Numbered from the stretch's first letter, positions 2,732 to 18,226 are shown. The stretch: DNA of 64,000 nt from Candidatus Heimdallarchaeota archaeon (GCA_011364965.1 RDOB01000003.1:432939-496938), one strand, 5' to 3'. Numbers and translations: made by a program. The notes: generated by a model not told the origin, from the sequence alone.

Positions 2732-3388
2732 GTGTTTATCATAAAAATAAAATTAATTATTTTTGATCTCGATGATACGTTAGTTAATAGTAAGTTGGAT
2801 TATTCAGGAATTCGAAAGAAGATAGCAAAACTTTACAGTGAACCTCCCTCCCCTTCAGAAGTTCAGAAAACACCAATTTTACGGTTATTGGAGAAATTAA
2901 CATTTATTCATCCAGATAGAGCTGACCAAGGAAAAAAAATTCTTTCCGAGGAAGAGAAAAAGGCTGCAATAGAAGCTGAGGTAATAACTGGTGCAGAAGA
3001 AGTACCTAAATTATTGAAAAAGTACGATATTTTAGCAGTAATTTATACAAATAATTCTCAGGAGTCTGTGTCTCATTATTTGAATCAGGATCGATTCGCA
3101 TTTTTGAAGGATATCCCCATATATACTCGTGAGCAATTTGAGAACGTAAAACCTCATCCAGAAGGTATTCTTAAGATTCTTGAATTGTATCAACAACAGA
3201 ATATAACACCTGATAATTCAGTTTACATAGGAGATTCTTATCTTGACGCATTAGCTGCACATAATGCGAAAATTAAATTTATTTGGTTTAAATCGAGAGA
3301 TCAATATGAAAATCCCATCCCAACAATACCCTATGCCACATTGACACATTGGAAGGATTTTGAAGATTTTTTACAAAACCACATTTAA
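2732..3388 (+). CDS. HAD-superfamily hydrolase (phosphatase)
   Basis: FDLDDTL motif I, TNN motif II, KPHPEG and IGDSYLD motifs III/IV. Confidence 0.88.
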   Translation: MFIIKIKLIIFDLDDTLVNSKLDYSGIRKKIAKLYSEPPSPSEVQKTPILRLLEKLTFIHPDRADQGKKILSEEEKKAAIEAEVITGAEEVPKLLKKYDILAVIYTNNSQESVSHYLNQDRFAFLKDIPIYTREQFENVKPHPEGILKILELYQQQNITPDNSVYIGDSYLDALAAHNAKIKFIWFKSRDQYENPIPTIPYATLTHWKDFEDFLQNHI

Positions 3389-3400
3389 TCTGTATTATAT

Positions 3401-3463
3401 TCTAATCCCTCGAGAAAGCACATATAGACGAATATCTCAATAAAAAGCTGTTCGAGGATTAGA
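3401..3463. repeat. Imperfect inverted repeat after the sugar operon (terminator-like hairpin or miniature element)
   Basis: TCTAATCCCTCGA (3401-3413) and TCGAGGATTAGA (3452-3463) are reverse complements apart from one extra C. Confidence 0.45.
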
Positions 3464-3608
3464 GATTTTTAGATCAGTTTTTATGTGCAAATATATTAAG
3501 CAATCTTAAAAATAAAAAAATTCTGATGATATTATGATTTTTATCGGATAGAAATCTATATTTCTCACTCTAGAACTAAAAAAAAAATGAGCTAGGTGCT
3601 ATGTATAT

Positions 3609-3815
3609 ATGAGAAAATTCGCATTCCAAGAACTTGCTTATGCAATTGTAGTTGCTACTTCCTATGGGGCACTGATGGGAATGTTGTTTAATGCGTATTC
3701 AGATGTCATCTTCTTCCTCCTGTGGGTACTTTTAATTTGCGCACACCTAGCAGGTATTTATCTTATTGCCTATCTTGAAGAAAAGAATGAAAAAAAGAGA
3801 AATCCTAATGATTAA
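3609..3815 (+). CDS. Small 2-TM membrane protein
   Basis: 68-aa ORF with two hydrophobic helices and a charged tail. AGGTG RBS-like sequence upstream. Confidence 0.65.
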   Translation: MRKFAFQELAYAIVVATSYGALMGMLFNAYSDVIFFLLWVLLICAHLAGIYLIAYLEEKNEKKRNPND

Positions 3816-3834
3816 CGCACTAGGAAGATCTTGA

Positions 3835-5094
3835 ATGGATAAAGAAGAATTAAATCTCTCTCATTCCCTATTTGAGGATTCATTAATTAATATTATTCCT
3901 TTCTTCGGCCCAAAGATCATCAATCGATTCCCTATTATACAATATGGGAGCTCAATTCCAATTTATGGATCTCTAATGATTCTTTTTTTTATCACAACAG
4001 GATTCTCAGTTCAAAAGGGAATATTGCTTGGAAGCACAACAATTGGCATCATTCTTTGGTCATTTTCCTTCAATCGAATCACAGATCAGTATAGAAATCT
4101 GAAATGTCCTAAAAACCTAAAAAACGGGATTAGAGTATACAAAAGATTCTATAACGTCCTCATTTCTAAGTATTCTCTAGCTTGTACGATTCTTTTCTCT
4201 TTAATAGGAATTTTGTATATTATTTCGTCAAATGTAATAAAAAATTTTCTTTTAGCTTTCAATCTTTCATCTGAGAGTCCATTTCAGCAAAAAGGAATGT
4301 TTATGTTTCTTTGTTTTGTTTTATTATTTGCTATTAGTATTCGAGTTGTATCTTCAGGATTTGCTATATTAGCTATATTTTATAGAAACTACTTATTTTC
4401 TGACTATATCCATAAAAAAAATAAAGGAAATCTGCATTTACTACCATATATAGCTATTACAACTGCCTTTGATAGAACAATTTTCCAGTCTTTCTTTATA
4501 TTTCTATTCTGGCTGCCTATCCCCCTTCTGCTAGAAGATTCGATTCTGATTTCTCTATTCATTATCATATTCATCGTTGCGATATTCTCATTGTTAATCA
4601 ATTCCATTTGGCTACGAAGAATTCGAGCTACTTCTATATCAAAGACTGTTTCCCAAGCTTTAAGACAGGAGTACCATGGGTTCTTCGCTTCTGTATCTTT
4701 GGCAAATAAACCACATATCACCCCGATTCTGTTTGGTTTTGATGGAGTAAATCTGTATTTCAACACTTCTATTGTATCCAAAAAGATAAAAAATCTTCAA
4801 CATCAAAATCGAGTAAGTTTAATACTAAAAACTGAGGATGGGTTCCATAAAATAATTTATTATGGAAAATCTCATGTTTATGGTCATAATACTTTCTGGA
4901 CTATCTTATATTTCATGATGTTTTGGCCAGAATTATTTTTTGCATACAAGATTTTGCAAAGGAAGTACCGAGAAGTATTAGAATATTATCAGAATAAAAA
5001 TCTTCCGTTACGTTGGTCACCGAAACCTTTCATTGCACGAACGATGATCAAAATAATCCCTGAAAAAATAGTAATCCTACCCTTTGAGTTATAA
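3835..5094 (+). CDS. Multi-TM membrane protein with C-terminal pyridoxamine-5'-phosphate-oxidase-like (split-barrel flavin/F420-binding) domain
   Basis: About 6 hydrophobic segments, then HGFFASVSLANKPHITPILFGFDGVNLYFNTSIVSKKIKNLQHQNRVSL, a typical PNPOx-like N-terminal signature. Confidence 0.75.
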   Translation: MDKEELNLSHSLFEDSLINIIPFFGPKIINRFPIIQYGSSIPIYGSLMILFFITTGFSVQKGILLGSTTIGIILWSFSFNRITDQYRNLKCPKNLKNGIRVYKRFYNVLISKYSLACTILFSLIGILYIISSNVIKNFLLAFNLSSESPFQQKGMFMFLCFVLLFAISIRVVSSGFAILAIFYRNYLFSDYIHKKNKGNLHLLPYIAITTAFDRTIFQSFFIFLFWLPIPLLLEDSILISLFIIIFIVAIFSLLINSIWLRRIRATSISKTVSQALRQEYHGFFASVSLANKPHITPILFGFDGVNLYFNTSIVSKKIKNLQHQNRVSLILKTEDGFHKIIYYGKSHVYGHNTFWTILYFMMFWPELFFAYKILQRKYREVLEYYQNKNLPLRWSPKPFIARTMIKIIPEKIVILPFEL

Positions 5095-5545: not shown

Positions 5546-7621
5546 TTAACGTAATAAACGTAATGAGTTTAAAATAGTTAATAAAGCAACTCCCATATCT
5601 CCAAAAACAGCTACCCACATACTAGCAAGGCCAATAGCTCCGAGAAAAATAAAAACCCCTTTTAATACTAGTGCAAAAATAATATTCTGTTTCGCTATTT
5701 TACTGGTTTTTTTTGCGATTTTTATAGATTGAGGAAGTTTAGAGGGATTATTATCCATAATCACCAAATCTGCGGCCTCAATTGTCGCATCGGAACCGAA
5801 TGCCATCGCTATTCCTATATCCGCTCGTGCTATTACGGGAGCATCATTTATACCATCCCCAACAAATGCAACATACTTATTTCCTGTTTGGACTTGTATG
5901 TATTTCTCTAGAATTTCTAATTTATTCAAAGGCATTAAACTAGCATAAACACGATCAATTCCAACCTGATTTGCAACTCTCTGTGCAATTCGTTTTGTAT
6001 CTCCTGTTAATAAAGCGATATCAGTAATATTTAAAGACTTTAACTCTTTAATGGTTTGTTGAGCAGTTGCTTTAACTTGATCATCAATTATGATATGGCC
6101 AATATATTTGCTATTTAGTACAACATAAACTGCTGTTTCATGCTGTATACACTCAGTATGTAAACAATCAATTTCGTGGATCATTTTATCATTGCCTACA
6201 ACGATAAAATTATCATCAGTGGTTTTCATAGAAATCCCCAAAGCTGGTAATTCTTCGTATTCAGCAATTAATGAGGAATCGATTGCTTTTCCATATGCTT
6301 CACGAATCGAAATCGCAATGGGATGATTCGATTGGCTTTCAGCTAAGGCTGCATAATACAATATATCATTAGGAGAATAGCTAAGTGTAGGAACTATGGT
6401 AACAACCTTAAACTTACCAATTGTAAGAGTTCCAGTCTTATCGAATAACACTGTAGATATATTTGTTAATTTATCAAGAGTATTAGCTCCTTTAAGTAAG
6501 ATACCATCTTTTGAGCTTTTCCCAATGCCAGAAAAATAAACCAAGGGAATAGAGACAACAAGGGCACATGGACAAGAAATAACCAGCACAACAAGCGCGC
6601 GATAGATCCACTCATTAAGCGACCCTCCAAATATCAGGGGGGGAATGATAGCCAGAAATAGAGCTGAAAATAGAACAAATGGAGTATAATATCGCGCAAA
6701 TCGTGTAATGAATAATTCTGTTTTGGATTTTTTTTCCGTTGCATTTTCCACCGCATTAAGTATTCTTGATACAGTTGAATCATAATAATGAGATGTTACT
6801 TTAATATGAAGGCTACCAGAGGGAATAGACCCAGAGAGAATTTCCATCCCTGCCTCAACATCAATAGGATGGCTTTCCCCAGTTAAAAAGGACATATCAA
6901 GAGTTGTTTGACCCTGAAGGATTTCTCCATCTAGTGGTACACGTTCTCCAGGTTTAACAAGTATCGTATCTCCAAGACTAATTTCAGAGATTGGGACATT
7001 TACAATTTCAGATCCATTTTCTTTATGTGCAACATCAGGCCTAATGTCAATAAGCGAACTTATGGCATGTCGGGAATGGTTCACCGCACGAGTTTGAAGG
7101 TATTCCCCAATCGTATAAAATACCATTACTGCTACTGCTTCAGGAATTTCATTGATAAAAATTGCCCCTAAAGTGGCAATAGACATCAAAAAATATTCAT
7201 TCGTAAAATCAGCTCGCTTAAGCTGTAAAAATGCTTTATAAAGAACTTTCCAGCCACTTATGATATACGCGAGAAATAAAAAAATGTTTCCTAGATGGAA
7301 AAAGGGGATTATAGGATCCGTTGTCGCAAACACTCCGAAAAATAGGAGTATTAATGCTAACCCGATTTGATATAAAGGAGATTTTGTGGGATATTTTCCT
7401 TCCATTGAATTTATCTTATAAGGAATAACCTTAATATCAGGTTCAATTGATGAAACAATCCCTTTAATGGTTTTTAAGTCATCAGATGCTATAGAAAGTG
7501 ATTGAGTAACCAAGTTTACTTTCACATCAGAAAAATTATAATTTTTCAATGCCTCTTCGATTTTTAAAGCGCAATCAGCGCAGTTTAGATTTTCAAGATT
7601 ATATCTGTTTAGAGGAGACAT
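5546..7621 (-). CDS. cadA: Heavy-metal P1B-type ATPase (Zn/Cd/Pb, CadA/ZntA-like)
   Basis: N-terminal HMA CADC, TGES, CPC, DKTGTLT, HP and GDGINDAP motifs. K in TM7 and D-x-G in TM8 are typical of P1B-2. Confidence 0.92.
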   Translation of the reverse strand: MSPLNRYNLENLNCADCALKIEEALKNYNFSDVKVNLVTQSLSIASDDLKTIKGIVSSIEPDIKVIPYKINSMEGKYPTKSPLYQIGLALILLFFGVFATTDPIIPFFHLGNIFLFLAYIISGWKVLYKAFLQLKRADFTNEYFLMSIATLGAIFINEIPEAVAVMVFYTIGEYLQTRAVNHSRHAISSLIDIRPDVAHKENGSEIVNVPISEISLGDTILVKPGERVPLDGEILQGQTTLDMSFLTGESHPIDVEAGMEILSGSIPSGSLHIKVTSHYYDSTVSRILNAVENATEKKSKTELFITRFARYYTPFVLFSALFLAIIPPLIFGGSLNEWIYRALVVLVISCPCALVVSIPLVYFSGIGKSSKDGILLKGANTLDKLTNISTVLFDKTGTLTIGKFKVVTIVPTLSYSPNDILYYAALAESQSNHPIAISIREAYGKAIDSSLIAEYEELPALGISMKTTDDNFIVVGNDKMIHEIDCLHTECIQHETAVYVVLNSKYIGHIIIDDQVKATAQQTIKELKSLNITDIALLTGDTKRIAQRVANQVGIDRVYASLMPLNKLEILEKYIQVQTGNKYVAFVGDGINDAPVIARADIGIAMAFGSDATIEAADLVIMDNNPSKLPQSIKIAKKTSKIAKQNIIFALVLKGVFIFLGAIGLASMWVAVFGDMGVALLTILNSLRLLR

Positions 7622-7973: not shown

Positions 7974-8159
7974 ATGGATGAATATCTATTATGTGAAGTA
8001 TGTTCTGAAAAGAAGCCTATACCGCAGCATTGCGGGAAAGTTATGCATTTAGAAATGTATCAAGGAAAGGAAATGTTGATTTGCTGGATGGGATCTACAT
8101 GTGGAGTACAGGAACTCCCATATCATCACAATCAACCAATGAAAATTAAACACAGTTAA
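7974..8159 (+). CDS. Small Cys/His-rich metal-binding protein (two desulforedoxin/zinc-ribbon-like halves)
   Basis: CEVC-x8-HCGKVM and CWMGSTC-x7-HHNQPM. GAGGA upstream. Confidence 0.7.
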   Translation: MDEYLLCEVCSEKKPIPQHCGKVMHLEMYQGKEMLICWMGSTCGVQELPYHHNQPMKIKHS

Positions 8160-8224
8160 TAAATAATAATTTTTGGGCTAAAATAGAACGGATTACATAT
8201 TATTCTTTATAGAGAGTGTTTTGC

Positions 8225-9193
8225 ATGGCATATGAAATTATTGGAGACATTATTTTCAGTTTCGTCACAGCCCTACGAGAGGTTCTTGAAGCTGCCCTAA
8301 TTATCGGAATTGTTTCTAGCTATATCTCGAAAGTAAAACGAAAAGATTTACTTAAAGAAATCTGGTTAGGAGTAATTACAGCAACTGTATTCAGTATAGC
8401 AATGGCTTGGTTTTTTCTCAATATGTTCAGCGGCCTTGAGGAATACCAAAAGCTCTTTGAGTCTATAATAATGTTTATTGCGGCTGGTGTTTTAACTTGG
8501 ATGGTTTTTTGGATGTCACGTCAATCCAAATCGATTAAATCAGAAATGGAAGAGAAAATTGACCAAATCATAACTACCCAACAAAAAACTGGCTTATTCT
8601 TACTGGTTTTCTTTTCTGTCGTAAGGGAAGGGGCGGAATTAGTCCTTTTTCTATTCGCAAATTACACTGGAAACATAGAGGAAGCTGGGATTTACATTGC
8701 TTTAGGAACAACAATTCTTGGGTTTACTCTTGGACTTATTTTGGCCGTTATAATGGCATATATAATTTTCAAGACAACTTATATGTTAGATTTGAAAAAA
8801 TTCTTCCAAATTACAAGTTTTATATTAATTATTTTTGCTGCAGGACTATTAGCTCATGGTATTCATGAATTTTACGAATTTCTTGAAATCACGAATACAG
8901 ACTTCGCAAGGTCTTTCATCTGGACTGAATTATGGAATATAAATGATGGTATATTAGGAAATATATTTCAATTTGTGTTCGGATGGAGCTATGATCCACA
9001 ATATCCTCTCAGATTTGAAAAAAGTGTTATTGGAGGCATTTTTGCAGGATTGTTTGGATGGAACGATAACCCGGCACTTCTAGAAGTATTAGGTTACATC
9101 TCATATTATTTAGCAATTTTAATAATACTTATGAAGGGAAATTTACGAAATCCCTCAACCAAAACGAATGAAGATAGTACTTTGCTACAGTAA
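8225..9193 (+). CDS. FTR1/EfeU-family iron permease
   Basis: Two RExxE motifs (LREVLE, VREGAE), about 7 TM, AAGLLAHGIHE. ATG 8225 preferred over GTG 8216. Confidence 0.9.
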   Translation: MAYEIIGDIIFSFVTALREVLEAALIIGIVSSYISKVKRKDLLKEIWLGVITATVFSIAMAWFFLNMFSGLEEYQKLFESIIMFIAAGVLTWMVFWMSRQSKSIKSEMEEKIDQIITTQQKTGLFLLVFFSVVREGAELVLFLFANYTGNIEEAGIYIALGTTILGFTLGLILAVIMAYIIFKTTYMLDLKKFFQITSFILIIFAAGLLAHGIHEFYEFLEITNTDFARSFIWTELWNINDGILGNIFQFVFGWSYDPQYPLRFEKSVIGGIFAGLFGWNDNPALLEVLGYISYYLAILIILMKGNLRNPSTKTNEDSTLLQ

Positions 9194-11050: not shown

Positions 11051-11293
11051 TTAGTTAGAGCTAAGAGTATAATAATATCGTCTCATATCACTCATATCAG
11101 GAGTTCTACGAACAATTTCACGTATTAAAAGCATTCTAAGAGCATCATGAATTGTTCTGCGACAATAACCAGTTCTATCTCTAATTTCCTCAACTAGCAT
11201 CCAATCCCCATCTTGTAAAACTTCATATACCTTATGCGCAGAAGGGGGAAGCACAGCTACCCTTTTTTCTTCAATCGATTCAGCAATTAACAC
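11051..11293 (-). CDS. Small stand-alone winged-HTH DNA-binding protein (MarR-like archaeal 'LPPSA...RRT..AL...DxR' family), paralogue A
   Basis: LPPSAHKVYEVL...CRRTIHDALRML...SDMRRYYY. AAGGAG RBS and a BRE-TATA upstream. Confidence 0.85.
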   Translation of the reverse strand: MLIAESIEEKRVAVLPPSAHKVYEVLQDGDWMLVEEIRDRTGYCRRTIHDALRMLLIREIVRRTPDMSDMRRYYYTLSSN

Positions 11294-11357
11294 TTTTATT
11301 AACTCCTTTCAACTTTATTGATCAACGTTTTTATTTAAGTATAATCATTACGCAACG

Positions 11358-11373
11358 TTATAAAAACTTTTCG
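11358..11373 (-). promoter_or_regulatory. Archaeal BRE + TATA box for wHTH paralogue A
   Basis: The minus strand reads CGAAAAG-TTTTTATAA about 65 bp upstream of the start codon. Confidence 0.65.
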
Positions 11374-11481
11374 TTGGAATGAGTTCGTGTACAGAAATAG
11401 AAAAAATCCTTAAAACAGGGTAAAAACGAGTAAAAAAATATACAAAGGGAACTTCAAAGATAAATGAAAAATTAGTAAAAA

Positions 11482-12699
11482 CTAGTAAAATAGATATTTT
11501 GATTCCCCAATCTTGTCCAAATATTCACAACTACCTGTGCTAACAACCTCTTTAATGATCGAAAGAACACGTTTACTAACAGGTAAGGCATCAATTTCTG
11601 CGGAGGATATCTCTTGTAAGTCTTTTGGAAAGCAATCAATGAGATATGCAGCTTTTTCAAAATCTCCTGTTCGCACCCAAACTGGAGGGTGGAATTTTTT
11701 GAGAAATGCAATCCGAAATAAAATTGTAGAAATTCGAAGATTTCCTTTAATCCTGCCTTCGGGAATATAGCGAGGCATCCGAGTGGGAATCCCATATTGC
11801 TTTCCTAAATCAAACCCTAAAGCAATTGGATTCTTTAGATTATATTCTTTTGCTATCTGATGATCGAAATTCCCCCATTTATTATTATTTCCATATAAAC
11901 GAGAGTATTGAGTAAGTAGAGTAGGATAATTTTCCTTAAGCTGACTGAGAAATTCTCTTTTATTCCGACCAGGTTTTAATGTCAATCCTCCTACCAACAC
12001 ATATTCTGCATGGGCTTTCTTTGCCTTTCTGAATAACTCATGCATATTTTCCTCAGTATCACCAATCCAGGGTAATACAGGTAGAAAAAGAACGCCTGCG
12101 TGAATACCTTGATTTCTTAGCATTCGAATTGCTGTCAAACGTTCTTGAGTAGTACTAGCTCTGGGTTCGAAGTTTTTTTGATCTTCTTCGTCAGTTAAAG
12201 TGATACTAAAACCTACGTTTGCATAATTAGACGAATTTATCTTCTTGAGAAGTTCTAAATCTCTAAGAACGGATTTATTTTTAGTAAGTAAAAACACGGG
12301 GAAACTATAGTCGTGTACAACCTGAAGCAATTGTTGAGTTATCTTTAATTTCCTTTCTGCAGGTTGATACACATCACAAACACCGCCACCAATTCCAATG
12401 ATAAACTTTCCTAGTGATTTGGGAACAATAAAACCTTTAGCAGGTAAATAATCTACTAATGTAGATTTCGAGAATTTTAGTTTTCTAAAAAACTGTTCAA
12501 GAACTTGAGGGGCATTTATTTTCCCTTTAATGCGTGTACCAAAGTCTTCATGCATATAGTAGCCTTCTGCCTTACCATCGCAATAGGTACAGTCATGATA
12601 GCATCCTAAATAAGGATTGATGGACGCTTCACACCACCACCATGAATCTACTGATCCTCGTCTAATTGGGGTTTTTGCTTTAATTCTCTCTATAATCAA
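11482..12699 (-). CDS. Radical SAM protein, spore-photoproduct-lyase (SplB/Rv2578c)-like, with C-terminal PolX 8-kDa/HhH-like domain
   Basis: INPYLGCYHDCTYCD, DVYQPAE, LTK, FEPRAST..RL and PVLPWIGD motifs. C-terminal FEKAAYLIDCFP...IIKEVVSTGSCEYL. Confidence 0.85.
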   Translation of the reverse strand: MIIERIKAKTPIRRGSVDSWWWCEASINPYLGCYHDCTYCDGKAEGYYMHEDFGTRIKGKINAPQVLEQFFRKLKFSKSTLVDYLPAKGFIVPKSLGKFIIGIGGGVCDVYQPAERKLKITQQLLQVVHDYSFPVFLLTKNKSVLRDLELLKKINSSNYANVGFSITLTDEEDQKNFEPRASTTQERLTAIRMLRNQGIHAGVLFLPVLPWIGDTEENMHELFRKAKKAHAEYVLVGGLTLKPGRNKREFLSQLKENYPTLLTQYSRLYGNNNKWGNFDHQIAKEYNLKNPIALGFDLGKQYGIPTRMPRYIPEGRIKGNLRISTILFRIAFLKKFHPPVWVRTGDFEKAAYLIDCFPKDLQEISSAEIDALPVSKRVLSIIKEVVSTGSCEYLDKIGESKYLFY

Positions 12700-12706
12700 G
12701 TTTCAT

Positions 12707-13435
12707 TCAAACCTGAACTGCTTTATTGGATTTGGAATGGTACCAAGACCAATAAATTTGAATAATTGCCCATATAATAAAACTAAAAATTATCAGCTTT
12801 TGAATAAATGGTTGAAAATCACCAAAGATTCCCAAGACAAACAAGCCAACTAGGAAAAATATTATGAATCCAGTTATTGCTAAAACATTTGAGTAATGGT
12901 GACTAATGTACATCGTTAGAGAATAAACTAGAATAGCAATGGAAGAAAGAATGAAAAACCCCTGTGCTGCTAAACCATGGAGTATGGGCTGAGTATCGAT
13001 AGGAAACAAAGCAACTGCAATTTGAAAAGGAACCGATAAAAGACCAAAACCAGAAGCAAATCCATTTAATAGACGTTGTAATGGAGATGTTAGATATGAA
13101 AGAAAAAGAATAGGTAATCCAACCCAGAATGGAATTAAAGTTACGGAAGCAATAATCATACTCAAAGTAAATAGGATAGAAGATATTGGATTATTTTCAC
13201 CATTGAGGGCAATTACACGCCCCAGCTCGCTAAAATAATTTCTAAAATAATCATATCCCCCAGGATAAATTAAAGCAGATACAGTGGACAAGATTAAAAA
13301 TTGGATTGTACAAAAAATTAATGAGCTTAACACAAAAAAAAATATGTAATTTAGTGTTTTTGACTCAAAATTATGATTGATTAAAGCAACAATTTTTGAA
13401 GTATTTATCAGAACCATTGCCTCTATTATAATCAT
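12707..13435 (-). CDS. DUF998-like membrane protein
   Basis: YPGGYDYFRNYFSELG, FP.D....HG and QK motifs. About 6 TM. The true start is probably downstream of the called one. Confidence 0.7.
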   Translation of the reverse strand: MIIIEAMVLINTSKIVALINHNFESKTLNYIFFFVLSSLIFCTIQFLILSTVSALIYPGGYDYFRNYFSELGRVIALNGENNPISSILFTLSMIIASVTLIPFWVGLPILFLSYLTSPLQRLLNGFASGFGLLSVPFQIAVALFPIDTQPILHGLAAQGFFILSSIAILVYSLTMYISHHYSNVLAITGFIIFFLVGLFVLGIFGDFQPFIQKLIIFSFIIWAIIQIYWSWYHSKSNKAVQV

Positions 13436-13505
13436 TATATCTACATATTTATCAAGTTATCGAAAATTAGTCTTTAATTAAATTCTATTCTCCTGATTAG
13501 AGGAC

Positions 13506-14474
13506 ATGGTTAAGTTGAAAATTCGAGAATATAAACCGACCGACTTTCATGGCCTTTTGGAAATCAGCAAACATATTTGGGAGGGACATGATTATTTACC
13601 TAAGAAAATAAACGATTTCTATATTGATCCTCATTCTAGTCCAATGGTAGTAATTGAAGAAGGGAAAATTGTCTCAATAGCTAATCTAAGGTTTCTTAAT
13701 AGGGAGATTGCTTGGTTGGAAGCTATAAGGACGCATCCAGAGTTTCGAGGAAAAGGTTATGCAACTTCATTAACCAAAGCGATGATTAAAAAGGCCAGAG
13801 CTGAGGGGGCAACAGAAGTATGGTTAATGACTAATACAGAAAATAAAGCAACAGCTATACTCCTTGAAAAACTTGGCTTTTCTGAATCTGGAAGAGTTGC
13901 AATGTGGCCAAATTGGGATATTATGACAGAGAGTTTAAAAAAGAACAGCATTCAGAATAAGCATTTTGATAAATTAGCAACCAGCCAAACGAAAAAAGAA
14001 GCAAGAGCTTCTGAAGATGGAAATTCCTATCGGACCTTGATTGAATCATTTCCTGTCACAAATAAAACTCTTGAATTGAGTAAAAAATGGAAAAAGATTA
14101 CCCAAAAGTCTCATATGAAAGAAATTCTCTCCAAAATTGTTAAACTGGGTGGAATGAATATAATTTATGGAGAATTCCATATTTATCCCCAGGATATGTT
14201 TGATCTTGATAAGAAAATCCAAAATAAAGAAATTCTTTACCTAGAAGAACCCCCTGCTCTTTTATTATTCGAAAAAAGTGAAGAAATCGAGTTAGGGTAT
14301 GGAATCGGACTGAATACATGTTCCTCCTATGCTCTCGAATCTGCTCTTTATTTTTTACTTGAAAATTATCCAAAATTAATATACTGGCTATTTTTCCCAG
14401 AATCATTGCAACATCTTTATATTAAACCTGGATTCCATCTTCAGAGATTTATGTGTAAGAAACTCAACTCCTGA
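13506..14474 (+). CDS. GNAT-family N-acetyltransferase with C-terminal extension
   Basis: AWLEAIRTHPEFRGKGYA acetyl-CoA motif and N..A..LLEKLGF. GAGG RBS. Confidence 0.85.
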   Translation: MVKLKIREYKPTDFHGLLEISKHIWEGHDYLPKKINDFYIDPHSSPMVVIEEGKIVSIANLRFLNREIAWLEAIRTHPEFRGKGYATSLTKAMIKKARAEGATEVWLMTNTENKATAILLEKLGFSESGRVAMWPNWDIMTESLKKNSIQNKHFDKLATSQTKKEARASEDGNSYRTLIESFPVTNKTLELSKKWKKITQKSHMKEILSKIVKLGGMNIIYGEFHIYPQDMFDLDKKIQNKEILYLEEPPALLLFEKSEEIELGYGIGLNTCSSYALESALYFLLENYPKLIYWLFFPESLQHLYIKPGFHLQRFMCKKLNS

Positions 14475-14748
14475 GATTTTTTATCATTATAAACATTGGA
14501 TAGAATTAGAATTGGTAGCTGGATAGAATTTTATTAATTACCATATAGAATAGTTTGTAAAACAAAATCTCTCTTCTTTTCTACAATTCTAACAAGTAGT
14601 TCTTTATGTAATAGGGATTCTTAATTTCATATTTCCCAACTATTTTATAGCAGTAAAACTATGATACAACTAAAGGTTATTGGATAATAAATCGCAGAGT
14701 TAGCTTTAATTTGTTAGAGTATTAGTACATATGTGGGATTGAAAGGAT

Positions 14749-15894
14749 ATGTTCCTATCTGAACTAAGTCTCCATTTAAAACGATTATCACCAGAAGCAA
14801 AACTCCAGATAACTGAATATGCTAAAACTTCTCATTGGGAAATCAAAGATTATGAACAGCTAGCTGAAGATCTGAATAAATTTATTCGTACAACTAATTC
14901 TACAGACTCAGAATTATATTACCTCCTAGCGAAATTCCTCTTTTTTTCTGGTTCCCTCTCAGAATTAAATGATTTATATCTGCTTGTTGCAGCCATTCAA
15001 TCCACTCCAGGTTTAGAAATTTTTTATGCGCTAGGATTAGCTTTTCAAGGATTCTCCTCTGAAGCTCTGGATATTTTGAATGAGATAAAACTAGAAGCGA
15101 TAACTGACGACCCTCAACTTTGGATGGAAACAAAAGGTATAATCCTTTATGTCTATTCTATAAAACGCGATTATAGAAAGGTAGAGAATTTATTTAACGA
15201 AATCATTAGTTACTCTGAAGATCTTCCTCCAGAATTTAATCATATAAAGGCACATTCCCTACCTTGGGCATATCTTCGACAAGCTTACTCAATCAGAGCA
15301 AAAGGGGAAATAACTGACGCACTGGAATTGATTGCGAAATGTAATCAAGATCTGAAAGCTTTTCCTCATAAATTCTTCCAAACAATGGTTTATACCTTAA
15401 TGGGACATTGTTTACATAATTCAGGCAATGTTAAGCAAGCACTAGGTTTCTATGATCAAGGTATTGATATTGGTTTTGAATGTCGTAGTAAATTACTTTT
15501 ATCCATATTATATAACCGAATTGGTATGGCAATGAGTAATCGAAAGCAAATGAAATCATCTAAAGAATTTTTTGAAAAAGCACTTAAGACAGCTCAAGAT
15601 GCAGGAGCAAAGTGGCTTACAATTGGCCCATTAGTCAATCTTGTAAGGTGGAAACTTGCGGAGGGACAAGTTAATGAGGCCATAAATGATTATCACAGCT
15701 TTGTAGACATAGCAGAGGCGGTAGGCGATGAACAAGAATTATGTTATGCATTAATAGGCCTTGCAGAGCTTTACGAACAAATTGACGATATTCCAAAATC
15801 TAAATTTTATTTATCGAAAGGTATAAAGCTAGGAATGAAGCTTGGGATATTTGAATTGGTTTCCTATCCCGAAAAGAATGATGAACCAAATTAA
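14749..15894 (+). CDS. Tetratricopeptide-repeat (TPR) protein
   Basis: Helical repeats of ~34-40 aa such as YTLMGHCLHNSGNVKQALGFYDQGI, YNRIGMAMSNRKQMKSSKEFFEKAL and LIGLAELYEQIDDIPKSKFYLSKGI. Confidence 0.8.
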   Translation: MFLSELSLHLKRLSPEAKLQITEYAKTSHWEIKDYEQLAEDLNKFIRTTNSTDSELYYLLAKFLFFSGSLSELNDLYLLVAAIQSTPGLEIFYALGLAFQGFSSEALDILNEIKLEAITDDPQLWMETKGIILYVYSIKRDYRKVENLFNEIISYSEDLPPEFNHIKAHSLPWAYLRQAYSIRAKGEITDALELIAKCNQDLKAFPHKFFQTMVYTLMGHCLHNSGNVKQALGFYDQGIDIGFECRSKLLLSILYNRIGMAMSNRKQMKSSKEFFEKALKTAQDAGAKWLTIGPLVNLVRWKLAEGQVNEAINDYHSFVDIAEAVGDEQELCYALIGLAELYEQIDDIPKSKFYLSKGIKLGMKLGIFELVSYPEKNDEPN

Positions 15895-16121
15895 GCCGCT
15901 TTCCGCAAGGCAAAAAACCGTCTCTTCCGCATATCTGAGAGATCAGCTCTATAATTCACAAGATTCGCTTTTATGAGCTGGGATAAAGCAACACTTACTG
16001 TTCGCCGGCTTAAGTTAGTAATCAATCTGATATCCTGAATCGTCATTAACTTATCTGTTTGTAAATGTTCATATACCTTCTGAACCGAAGGAGGGAATGT
16101 ATCAACAGGAATTATATCCAT
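15891..16121 (-). CDS. Small stand-alone winged-HTH protein, paralogue B
   Basis: FPPSVQKVYEHL...SRRTVSVALSQL...SDMRKRRF. GAGAGG RBS. 4-bp convergent overlap with the TPR gene. Confidence 0.85.
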   Translation of the reverse strand: MDIIPVDTFPPSVQKVYEHLQTDKLMTIQDIRLITNLSRRTVSVALSQLIKANLVNYRADLSDMRKRRFFALRKAA

Positions 16122-16297
16122 CTTAGTCCTCTCATTTATTATTTATTTAAACTAAAGCTGATAGATATTTATTATATGATTTGTGGTACAAAGCTTTAGC
16201 TTTAGATAGGAAAAGAGGAATCTAGTACAGTTTTTTGACAATGATTTTTATGAAACATTGAAAAAAGGACGAAAATTATAAGCAAACACTCAATGAT

Positions 16298-16576
16298 TCA
16301 TACTTGCGCTCTTTTTTTAATTTCTGCAAGAAAACTGTAGAGAGGAATACCAGAAAGAGAATATAATTTTCTTCTCATATCGGTGAGACAGTGTGTTTTT
16401 ATAAGCAAACCTCTCTTCTCCATTAAGTTCAGCGCATTTTGAACTGTTCTACGACTATAATTTGATTTGAGAGTCATCTCGTCAATTGTTAAATTTTCTT
16501 CCGTATTCAAAATATCATAAATTCTGTAAACTGCAGGGGGTAACCCCAGTAAGACTTCAGTTTCCGATTCGGTCAT
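16298..16576 (-). CDS. Small stand-alone winged-HTH protein, paralogue C
   Basis: LPPAVYRIYDIL...SRRTVQNALNLM...TDMRRKLY. Confidence 0.85.
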   Translation of the reverse strand: MTESETEVLLGLPPAVYRIYDILNTEENLTIDEMTLKSNYSRRTVQNALNLMEKRGLLIKTHCLTDMRRKLYSLSGIPLYSFLAEIKKRAQV

Positions 16577-16811
16577 GATTACTCTATGATATTAATAATA
16601 ACCAAATAATAGTAAGTATTCTCGTTGTTGAAAACACCCCTCTTAGTGTATTTTGTAACACTTTTTGCAAAGTTATACCTAGCTTTAAATAAATAGAAAG
16701 TAAATTTAGTTTTTCGACTCTTTTGACAAATCCTAGTATGATAAACTATAATCAATCAGTTTCATACTTCATTAGACTTCATAAAGAAAGGGATTCCGGG
16801 ATTATGGATAA

Positions 16812-17636
16812 CTAAAGAAGTGTAAAAAATTCTTCTTTCACTTGTTTATCATAAAAAGAGAAAAAAAACGGTAAACGTGCAAAATTCTTGTTATATTTTA
16901 TAGGATTTCCAGATAAATCAGAGCAAACTCCACCAGCTTCCTCAAGAATCACAGAAGGTATTCCATAGTCATGCGGACTAGCAAGATGACACATTTGGAT
17001 TTTAGCATTACCTTCTGCGACAGCAATCATTTTATGATGGGCACTTAAACAATCTAGTGACTCTAATTCCATTTTCTGCAATATAGGTATAAGATTTTCA
17101 CACCTTTTCTGACAATAAAAGGATAAAGGAACTTTTTTTCGTTGAAATGGAATGTTTTGACCAGAGCTATCCATTACTTCAATTCCTTTCCTCCTTTCAG
17201 CATAATAAAGGCGATTGAATGCTGGAAAATAAATTGCGCTTGCAAAGAACTCCAGATTTCTAGAAAATGCAGCTCCAATCGAAAAATCATCTCTTCCCTG
17301 AATATAAGCAAAAGTTCCATCAAGGGGATCTAAGTGAAAACATAAATCCCTTTTGTTCAAGGAAAACCGATTAACGCGCTCTGTGTCCTCCTCAACATTA
17401 ATACCTATTTTTGGATACTGTGAGGTTAATATTTCAAGAGCAACTTCTTGAACTAAGTCATCTAAAAATGTGTGTGCTGTAGAAGTTTTATCCACTGAAT
17501 CTTGAGGTAAATCAGACTTTTTAGGTAGATTATCAACTGATCCTCTAAACGCTTTAAGGATTAAACCTCCTGTTAGTACTATAGCTTTTAAAATGGGGTA
17601 AAAATCTTCATCAAACTGTAAAATCTGGTTTTTCAA
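16812..17636 (-). CDS. Inositol monophosphatase/CysQ-family (FIG) phosphatase
   Basis: VEED, LDPLDGT..Y, HD (in place of the usual WD) and ILEEAGG.CSDLSG motifs. Confidence 0.85.
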   Translation of the reverse strand: MKNQILQFDEDFYPILKAIVLTGGLILKAFRGSVDNLPKKSDLPQDSVDKTSTAHTFLDDLVQEVALEILTSQYPKIGINVEEDTERVNRFSLNKRDLCFHLDPLDGTFAYIQGRDDFSIGAAFSRNLEFFASAIYFPAFNRLYYAERRKGIEVMDSSGQNIPFQRKKVPLSFYCQKRCENLIPILQKMELESLDCLSAHHKMIAVAEGNAKIQMCHLASPHDYGIPSVILEEAGGVCSDLSGNPIKYNKNFARLPFFFSFYDKQVKEEFFTLL

Positions 17637-17659
17637 AGCAAAAACCCATTTTAGAATAT

Positions 17660-18226
17660 TCAGATAGGTGGTAATCCATCTAATAACTCAGGATGAAGGG
17701 AATAATACTCTTCACGCAATAAATCCATGATTAAAGTATCAAAGATTTTGCCATGAATAAAAATCGACTCACGAACGCGAGCAGACACCCGAAAACCAGA
17801 TTTTTCAGCAAGCCTGATCGCTCTGGGATTTCCACTTTGTGTCCAAATTCTAGCAACTAGCAGACCTAATTCCTCAAAAAGGAATTTAAGTAACACTTCC
17901 TGTGCATCAAATGATGCTCCAGTTCCCCAAAATTTCTTTCTTACCACTAAACCGATAGTTGTAGAAAATCGGGATTCGTATTCCGAATAACTAATCGTAC
18001 CCACAAGCTCATCCGATTCTTTATGGATGATTGTAAATCGAGCATCTTTTCGATCAAATGAAAACTCTTTTTCTTCAAATCGTTTCTGATACATTGGTAA
18101 AGTATAATCGGGAGGAAGGGCCTTATTCCAAGCTTGAGTAGCCATGTCGTTACGTAATTTTACGAAAGTTTCAATATCTGATATACGTTCTTCTCGTAAA
18201 TAGATGGTTTTCCCTTCAAGAACCAT
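17660..18226 (-). CDS. RimJ/RimL-type GNAT acetyltransferase
   Basis: GKTIYLR, FWGTG and N.RAIRLAEKSGF motifs. Start moved to ATG 18226, which has a TAATG overlap with the upstream stop and a GGAGG RBS. Confidence 0.85.
   Translation of the reverse strand: MVLEGKTIYLREERISDIETFVKLRNDMATQAWNKALPPDYTLPMYQKRFEEKEFSFDRKDARFTIIHKESDELVGTISYSEYESRFSTTIGLVVRKKFWGTGASFDAQEVLLKFLFEELGLLVARIWTQSGNPRAIRLAEKSGFRVSARVRESIFIHGKIFDTLIMDLLREEYYSLHPELLDGLPPI

Follow-up and report, generated by a model that had tools for sequence, protein, structure and literature searches.

Three small genes on the minus strand of a 64,000-nucleotide stretch of DNA from Candidatus Heimdallarchaeota archaeon (GCA_011364965.1, RDOB01000003.1:432939-496938; the whole stretch is called the window below), at positions 11051-11293, 15891-16121 and 16298-16576 (genes 1, 2 and 3), were found to encode members of a large, mainly archaeal and uncharacterised family of minimal winged-helix proteins, here termed the mini-MarR family. 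The three proteins (minis) are the minimal, domain-only form of the already known MarR-type winged helix-turn-helix (wHTH) regulators, and each is most likely a sequence-specific regulator, possibly of its own gene, with its own targets; their DNA-binding mode, oligomeric state, specificity and targets are what we infer below. By themselves, the three genes show nothing beyond ordinary membership of the family, and the only points of some interest are the conserved, linked trio that they form and the architecture of the family at large, with its pairs, arrays and fusions to NAD kinase.

Calls of open reading frames (ORFs), all on the minus strand, together with an alignment bore out the shared motif that an earlier reading of the sequence alone (the sequence-only reading) had noticed in the three genes. 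As homologues with 76-83% identity exist in other assemblies (P0002, 83% identical to gene 1; P0023, 77% identical to gene 3; and P0055), the three small ORFs are real genes. Gene 1 encodes 80 amino acids (isoelectric point (pI) 6.7, net charge 0) from a GTG start with GGAG 12 nt 5' of it, carries the recognition helix YCRRTIHDAL and the wing SDMRR, and scored E=3e-37 against the family hidden Markov model (HMM). Gene 2 (76 amino acids, pI 10.3; SRRTVSVALSQLIKANLV, wing SDMRK) and gene 3 (92 amino acids, pI 8.8; SRRTVQNALNLM, wing TDMRR, short C-terminal helix) begin with ATG. The motif had also been claimed for the C terminus of a minus-strand ORF at 52171-53217 (348 amino acids), a fusion of NAD kinase and wHTH, and was confirmed there by an alignment of the four domains and by the genome-wide HMM, with the wHTH at 52171-52410 as judged from HMM and tree. 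Across the four aligned domains, D-M-R of the wing was invariant, as were T, A and L of the third (recognition) helix. In six-frame scans of the assembly (2.97 Mb, 16 contigs, 34.8% GC), the strict pattern of the sequence-only reading matched precisely the three minis, and [ST]DMR[RKE] matched just the four window copies and one fragment on contig C12. Upon searching the genome with an HMM of the four domains, we obtained 11 members at E<1e-10, followed by a gap to the next match at E=3e-7, in keeping with the earlier proposal that the minis and the fusion C terminus belong to one wHTH family. Besides the four window copies, these comprise six intact stand-alone copies (C11:72 kb, C11:53 kb, C11:370 kb, C12:31 kb, C12:64 kb and C9:39 kb) and an eleventh, at C11:629 kb, that is interrupted by a stop; three more fragments exist besides the 11.

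As defined here, the mini-MarR family is characterised by the pattern LPPSA...RT[IV]RxAL...DxR, a length of 70-125 amino acids and a wHTH as the only domain, and it has no established name. We built one profile from the ten domains of this genome (A2) and a wider one with added representatives (A3). An exhaustive profile search of 1.84 billion cluster representatives returned 2812 clusters at E<=1e-3, of which 531 reached E<=1e-10; most have 70-125 amino acids. Their source names included Hodarchaeales/Hodarchaeota, Heimdallarchaeota, Baldrarchaeia and the haloarchaea Halogeometricum and Natrinema, and their labels read 'MarR family transcriptional regulator' or 'winged helix-turn-helix'. Judging from the names attached to homologues, the window organism is probably Hodarchaeales-like. 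The three minis scored 81-93 bits against the 134-sequence mini-MarR profile. They lie at or below the MarR cut-off of Pfam: for MarR_2, gene 3 reached 27.0 bits, which equals the cut-off, and gene 2 reached 19.4 bits, with no MarR match for gene 1 in the Pfam scan (PF01047 / PF12802); many close homologues carry a precomputed PF01047 assignment. TrmB (PF01978) gave 15-21 bits against a cut-off of 25.6, MsvR (NF053755) 22-31 bits against 220 and over the N-terminal HTH part only, and Sta1 (NF053606) at most 19.7 bits against 80, and the match to HTH_24 in the Pfam/NCBIfam scan was also below its cut-off. A single-protein scan with gene 3 over genome and metagenome contig collections brought up no relative.

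Confident AlphaFold2 (AF2) models, computed from family alignments, contained a wHTH only; none of the minis has a second domain, in line with the earlier observation that they lack a ligand-binding one. Gene 2 was predicted to form a bare wHTH (helices 11-20, 28-35 and 39-51, strands 55-59 and 67-71; predicted local distance difference test score (pLDDT) 83.8) and gene 3 (pLDDT 84.3) the same core with an additional C-terminal helix at residues 79-90 (12 residues, pLDDT 66-71); gene 1, by alignment, stops 9 residues past DMR. Foldseek comparison with the PDB returned nearly exclusively MarR-family regulators (HpaR bound to DNA, 7el3; BpsR, MepR, SlyA and ZitR/AdcR), the top matches of gene 3 being all of this family, with TMq ~0.7 and TMt ~0.45 and about half of each MarR target covered, as well as ST1889 (2d1h) and the plasmid centromere-binding protein AspA (4rs8). 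By sequence profile, the nearest PDB chains were ST1889, AF2008, AdcR and MJ223. From the TM scores, the predicted mini amounts to that half of a MarR protein which binds DNA. Regulators such as MepR, HpaR, SlyA and ZitR/AdcR, which were the best structural and profile matches, resemble the minis in the wHTH core and in the Asp-x-Arg wing that all three minis possess, but have ~140-160 amino acids, compared to 76-92, about half, in the minis, from which the N- and C-terminal dimerisation and ligand-pocket helices of MarR are absent (the models consist of three helices and two strands only, with the 12-residue helix added in gene 3). ST1889, AF2008 (1sfx) and MJ223 (1ku9), matched by profile at E 3e-7 to 2e-6, are archaeal, small and devoid of a ligand domain like the minis, but are longer (109-152 amino acids) and only weakly similar (~19% identity), and their functions are likewise unknown. 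Their extra length is presumably helical and dimer-forming.

The DMR wing, which the sequence-only reading had singled out as a distinctive variant, turned out to be commonplace. Arg87 of MepR reaches into the minor groove with Asp85 buttressing it, and the MarR family as a whole conserves the two residues (PMC3936728). Likewise, the D and the R of the wing were invariant in our alignments of 4, 83 and 134 sequences, and DMR is located in the beta-hairpin loop of the models. DMR was the commonest wing (83) among the best 190 family matches, followed by DAR (42) and DLR (27), a ranking that is somewhat biased because the query profile favours DMR. DMR wings are present in other Asgard families too, and DMR, DAR, DLR and NMR all occur within this genome. 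Hence, DMR is the canonical Asp-x-Arg wing found across MarR proteins, in which the variable residue is Met.

Because of the fold, the near-invariant R-T that opens helix 3 and the invariant D-x-R, we infer a MarR-like binding mode, in which the third helix (S-x-R-T-[IV]-x-x-A-L) would sit in the major groove and the wing Arg, buttressed by Asp, would reach into the AT-rich minor groove next to it, as it does when MepR and other MarR proteins are bound to DNA. The minis would have kept the DNA-binding core alone, that is, three helices and the beta-hairpin wing, and as the dimerisation helices and the ligand pocket of MarR are absent, they would not perform MarR-style small-molecule sensing. 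Pairing would go through the DNA, through short tails or through other family members, and the existence of natural two-domain proteins suggests that the domains work as pairs. Signal input would come from partner proteins, modification or expression level, and the fusion to NAD kinase would simply draw on a remote branch of this domain family. Among archaeal regulators, small single-domain transcription factors account for a large share, and it is an open question how they gain specificity and signal input when they have no sensor domain (PMC2872624). The mini-MarR family could serve as a test case for such sensor-less regulation, being large, present in several Asgard lineages and in haloarchaea, and arranged in pairs, trios, arrays and NAD-kinase fusions.

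Sequence-specific regulation is further suggested by the exposed positions of helix 3, which differ among the paralogues (HD..R in gene 1, SV..S in gene 2 and QN..N in gene 3, with RY..K as the family mode) and whose paralogue-specific residues are kept in the 76-83% identical homologues. Other subfamilies have conserved neighbours of their own, namely a zinc-ribbon protein directly downstream in 5 loci and, in 3 loci, a divergent 230-250-amino-acid protein with a weak, sub-threshold HTH_5 match beside the wHTH gene; the neighbours of the paralogues in this genome, in turn, had no common theme (HAD phosphatase, Maf, luciferase-like oxidoreductase, Sir2 and another HTH protein). The variation in helix 3 and the subfamily neighbours, together with the neutral charge of one mini, the rudimentary or absent coiled-coil helix and the presence of histones and Alba, led us to favour specific regulators over chromatin proteins, though none of these reasons is decisive. 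Several points weigh against specific regulation. Inverted-repeat and shared-word searches of the three upstream regions yielded no convincing inverted repeat, palindrome or shared motif, and a small size, a multi-copy state and the lack of a ligand domain would fit a nucleoid-associated protein equally well. As a monomer, a bare wHTH usually has low affinity for DNA, so that an unknown partner may be essential. Finally, a 40-row tree (see below) gave no clear one-to-one pairing of genes 1 and 3 with the copies a and b of a related trio in another species of the genus.

It is rather unlikely, in our estimate, that, as one option of the sequence-only reading had it, the family consists of architectural proteins akin to Lrs14 and Sul10a, which would coat or bend AT-rich DNA with little specificity and whose paralogues would tune global expression. 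Lrs14, Sul10a and Sul12a of Sulfolobales are, like the minis, small wHTH proteins with several paralogues and no ligand domain, Lrs14 having 4-9 homologues per genome (PMC11841832), to which the 11 copies found here may be compared. Two of the three minis are basic, with a median pI of 9.6 for the family, the Foldseek match AspA is a DNA-spreading wHTH, and natural tandem proteins of 2 to ~7 domains exist (P0049, P0121 and P0047). However, Lrs14 is typified, and indeed defined, by coiled-coil dimerisation via a long C-terminal helix H4, and a coiled-coil helix likewise marks Sul10a and TrmBL2-type architectural wHTH proteins (PMC11841832). Such a helix is absent after the wing of gene 2 and rudimentary in gene 3, where a short helix follows. 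Scores against the Lrs14 model of NCBIfam (NF040939) were 17-22 bits (17.1 and 16.7 for two minis and 22.4 for the fusion), far below the cut-off of 90 bits, and gene 1 had no match to this profile. Gene 1 is moreover not basic, and the genome already has 5-6 histone-fold genes plus Alba. Lrs14 has been treated within Sulfolobales (PMC11841832), and this genome looks Asgard. A codon adaptation index based on ribosomal proteins and thermosome was uninformative, as the reference genes, the histones and Alba ranged from the bottom to the 98th percentile. Genome-wide, codon usage shows almost no expression-linked bias, such that codon-based proxies of expression fail in this organism.

The copies in the window are ancient paralogues and no close relatives. 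Among the ten domains of this genome, pairwise identity was 18-41%, with the window copies no nearer to one another than to copies elsewhere, and the wHTH of the fusion was 19-27% identical to all others. In the main tree (142 rows, 85 columns, with many forks lacking resolution), the fusion domain formed a clade with four other fusion domains on a long stem (100% in the SH-like approximate likelihood ratio test), several paralogues paired with representatives of other genomes, and the three minis fell within a 29-row set (support 93) that also held 25 representatives from elsewhere and the paralogue at C11:72 kb. An approximately unbiased test rejected a clade of the four window copies (log-likelihood difference 135, p=0.0004). 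With this, and with the fusion domain in a fully supported clade of its own, the special four-way link that the sequence-only reading had drawn among the window copies is not upheld. In the 40-row tree, gene 2 (with P0055) joined a copy at 4093-4344 in another species of the genus (genome G005, contig C39) with support 97/94, apart from genes 1 and 3, which fell with the other two copies of that contig into a 12-row set whose internal branching was not settled. Because gene 2 splits from genes 1 and 3 and groups with the G005 copy, the trio comprises at least two old lineages, and not the products of a recent local duplication.

The clustering of the trio, which had been noted from the sequence alone, exceeded chance. 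For random placement of the 11 family loci, the probability of three or more within 5.6 kb was 0.0016, and that of four or more within 64 kb was 0.008; if the tandem pair is taken as a single locus, three loci across the same span give P = 0.054, which is not significant. The signal comes from the trio, and the fusion, 36 kb off, adds nothing beyond chance. Contig C39 of G005 carries three family genes in 1.7 kb, whose best window matches are gene 1 (48% identity), gene 3 (44%) and gene 2 (51%), and this trio adjoins orthologues of two window genes, the 61-amino-acid metal-site protein at 7974-8159 (59% identity) and the P1B-type ATPase at 5546-7621 (64%). Between those genes, the G005 locus holds a major facilitator superfamily (MFS) transporter (Pfam MFS_1) and a 118-amino-acid ORF of ArsR-like appearance, and the neighbourhood in the window is stretched by intervening genes for FTR1, NIF3, ICMT, radical SAM, DUF998, GNAT and TPR proteins. 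In other Asgard families, too, mini-MarR genes occur in pairs and trios. By gene order and sequence, the trio would thus be an old linked set that was kept compact beside metal-transport genes in a second species.

This linkage to the ATPase and to the metal-site gene in both genomes, together with the zinc-sensing MarR proteins AdcR and ZitR among the best PDB sequence matches and the transporter and ArsR-like ORF in the G005 locus, could mean that the trio regulates the nearby metal-homeostasis genes (the P1B ATPase, the metal-site protein and FTR1 at 8216-9193). We regard such a role as very unlikely. The linkage is seen in two genomes only, 3 to 8 kb of unrelated genes lie between the trio and the metal genes in the window, the helices that hold the metal ligands in AdcR and ZitR are missing from the minis as whole regions, and the G005 locus already has an apparently ArsR-like ORF.

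It is still harder to regard the trio as genes carried by a mobile element, a virus or a defence island, as small wHTH repressors or antitoxins might be, and we give this idea next to no credence. Three degenerate copies do lie near the end of contig C11, and genes near the C11 copies are 92-93% identical to genes of another species of the genus (G008), far above the typical identity of orthologues. But tblastn against phage and plasmid collections gave no match, PHROGs and PADLOC gave weak, generic HTH matches only, the neighbours in the window are of housekeeping type (radical SAM, GNAT, TPR, inositol monophosphatase), and the trio is syntenic across species. No integrase, no att sites bounding the trio and no toxin partner were seen. 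The degenerate or truncated copies, which are of one subfamily, lie within 15 kb of the C11 end (locus L005, C11:614000-631821, at ~3090-3227, 15098-15331 and 17574-17744); one is broken by TAG, two are fragments, and the intact form resembles P0084. The near-identical genes are three adjacent ones (L005:8223-9929 versus L012, G008:C37, 7335-9022), an ATC_hydrolase-like gene and two for ~105-amino-acid proteins without a Pfam match, with family wHTH genes near in both loci. Compared to the 40-80% identity of typical orthologues in the genus, their 92-93% suggests a recent transfer.

The N-terminal part of the fusion matched NAD kinase (PF20143, E=1.7e-10, and several NCBIfam NAD-kinase models). 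Among the matches listed, there were at least 8 fusions of NAD kinase to wHTH, of 269-358 amino acids, the one of 269 clustering with a member of 355, and fusions whose wHTH is of the mini-MarR family occur in several Asgard families. Within the genus, a family profile found, besides the present fusion, a fusion-like match in 1 of 21 other species (G012), a truncated NAD kinase-wHTH gene heading the same operon. Elsewhere in the class and in the phylum, other families do have clear fusions, and the distribution looks patchy. A precedent for joining a metabolic kinase to a DNA-binding domain is archaeal RbkR, described as a riboflavin kinase/regulator (PMC5397151); kinase and pathway differ there, and the likeness concerns the fusion and not the three stand-alone genes.

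The sequence-only reading had proposed competition or heterodimers with the fusion as its other option, and we considered whether one or more of the minis, especially gene 3, share an operator with the fusion and either compete with it or form heterodimers, be it with the fusion or among themselves. Between the fusion and the gene at 53452-53940, the divergent promoter region contains a perfect 16-bp palindrome, ATGATATTAATATCAT (53305-53320), unique in the genome, which shares its left half and centre with a site in the intergenic region upstream of gene 3 (16577-16811, 235 bp, minus strand). There, the 13-mer TATGATATTAATA (16585-16597, plus strand) lies 9-21 nt 5' of the ATG, and its only other occurrence in 2.97 Mb is inside the palindrome. 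The five other genome sites with at most one mismatch to the palindrome are all within ORFs. Gene 3 and the fusion, furthermore, share a rare helix signature, xN..N, found in 4 of 194 family helices, two of which are gene 3 (P0005) and its homologue P0023. Family genes are often paired or in trios in Asgard genomes, covalent two-domain forms exist, and it has been put forward before that archaea use small transcription factors in combination (PMC2872624). Nevertheless, a shared operator appears unlikely to us, and we keep it as a lead only. Both the helix signature and the 13-mer came to light post hoc. In ~6% of Markov-simulated sets, four AT-rich upstream regions had a word of at least 13 nt in common, and TATGATATTAATA overlaps the probable TATA box of gene 3. 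The wHTH of the fusion is a separate deep clade and its distance of 36 kb from the trio is not beyond chance; across the genus, minis are found in all genomes, as opposed to the single fusion-like match outside this one, and no similar palindrome was present upstream of the fusion in five relatives from the class. The more far-reaching version, in which Asgard wHTH-only proteins act as mix-and-match partners, with heteromers among the trio and gene 3 sharing its operator specificity with the NAD kinase-wHTH sensor, we hold to be quite improbable. If true, a regulator that senses a metabolite would face competition or modulation from modules without a sensor. The closest archaeal relatives of eukaryotes would then have a prokaryotic equivalent of the combinatorial or 'microProtein' control of transcription in eukaryotes. 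The reading of the minis as sequence-specific regulators with targets of their own is the one that we prefer here as well.

Comparison of copy numbers, made with the 134-sequence profile at E<=1e-8, gave 11 copies for this genome. The other 21 species of the genus had 1-10 (median 4), and a further 90 Asgard genomes, each at least 80% complete, had 0-8, with none in 23 of them; 68 of 91 Asgard genomes carry a family match. Per megabase, the copies here amount to ~3 times the genus median. An expansion, which the sequence-only reading had considered, is borne out in that this genome has the highest count among the relatives searched, but it is modest, exceeding the genus median ~2-3 fold, which puts this genome at the upper end of the range without making it an outlier in kind.

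Gene 1 is preceded by an intergenic region of 188 bp (11294-11481, minus strand) with the GGAG near its 3' end. The word ATTGATCAACG at 11317-11327 (plus strand), which encloses the palindrome TTGATCAA, occurs twice in the whole genome, and a search for shared 10-11-mers found it also in the divergent promoter region between copies b and c of the G005 trio; it is at most a candidate operator. The 3' end of gene 2 overlaps the convergent TPR gene at 14749-15894 by 4 bp. Its upstream intergenic region (16122-16297, minus strand, 176 bp) has an AT-rich, TATA-like stretch, GAGAGG ahead of the ATG, and one 13-nt inverted repeat with arms at 16249-16261 and 16290-16302.

Other arrangements of family genes were noted elsewhere. 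Five loci in four further species of the genus (L011:2953-4064, L012:4558-5684, L014:2589-3393, L015:2275-3219 and L018:2352-3237, with G005 contributing two if its trio contig is counted separately) have a mini-wHTH gene close to gene 1 that is directly followed by a gene for a 180-243-amino-acid protein, with an N-terminal zinc ribbon in 4 of the 4 partner proteins scanned; this two-gene unit is absent from the window. The C9 paralogue (L007, C9:36080-42397; 2115-2882, 3001-3279 and 3432-4184) lies between a gene for a Sir2-family deacetylase and one for a divergent 250-amino-acid protein with the weak, sub-threshold HTH_5 match, homologues of which are divergent from a wHTH gene in G017 and G010 too. 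The proteins with 2 to ~7 tandem family domains come from metagenomes and include P0049 (162 amino acids) and P0121 (192 amino acids), which are two-domain forms, P0047 (642 amino acids) and P0052 (1182 amino acids). Finally, in one Asgard family (f10), mini-wHTH genes that encode a 25-amino-acid C-terminal helical tail, all with DMR wings, form tandem pairs or flank a gene for a conserved 363-amino-acid double-HTH protein with an AsnC-type HTH (L025:2182-6491, L026:1220-3244, L028:329-2600; L023:1965-2677, L024:2029-2749).

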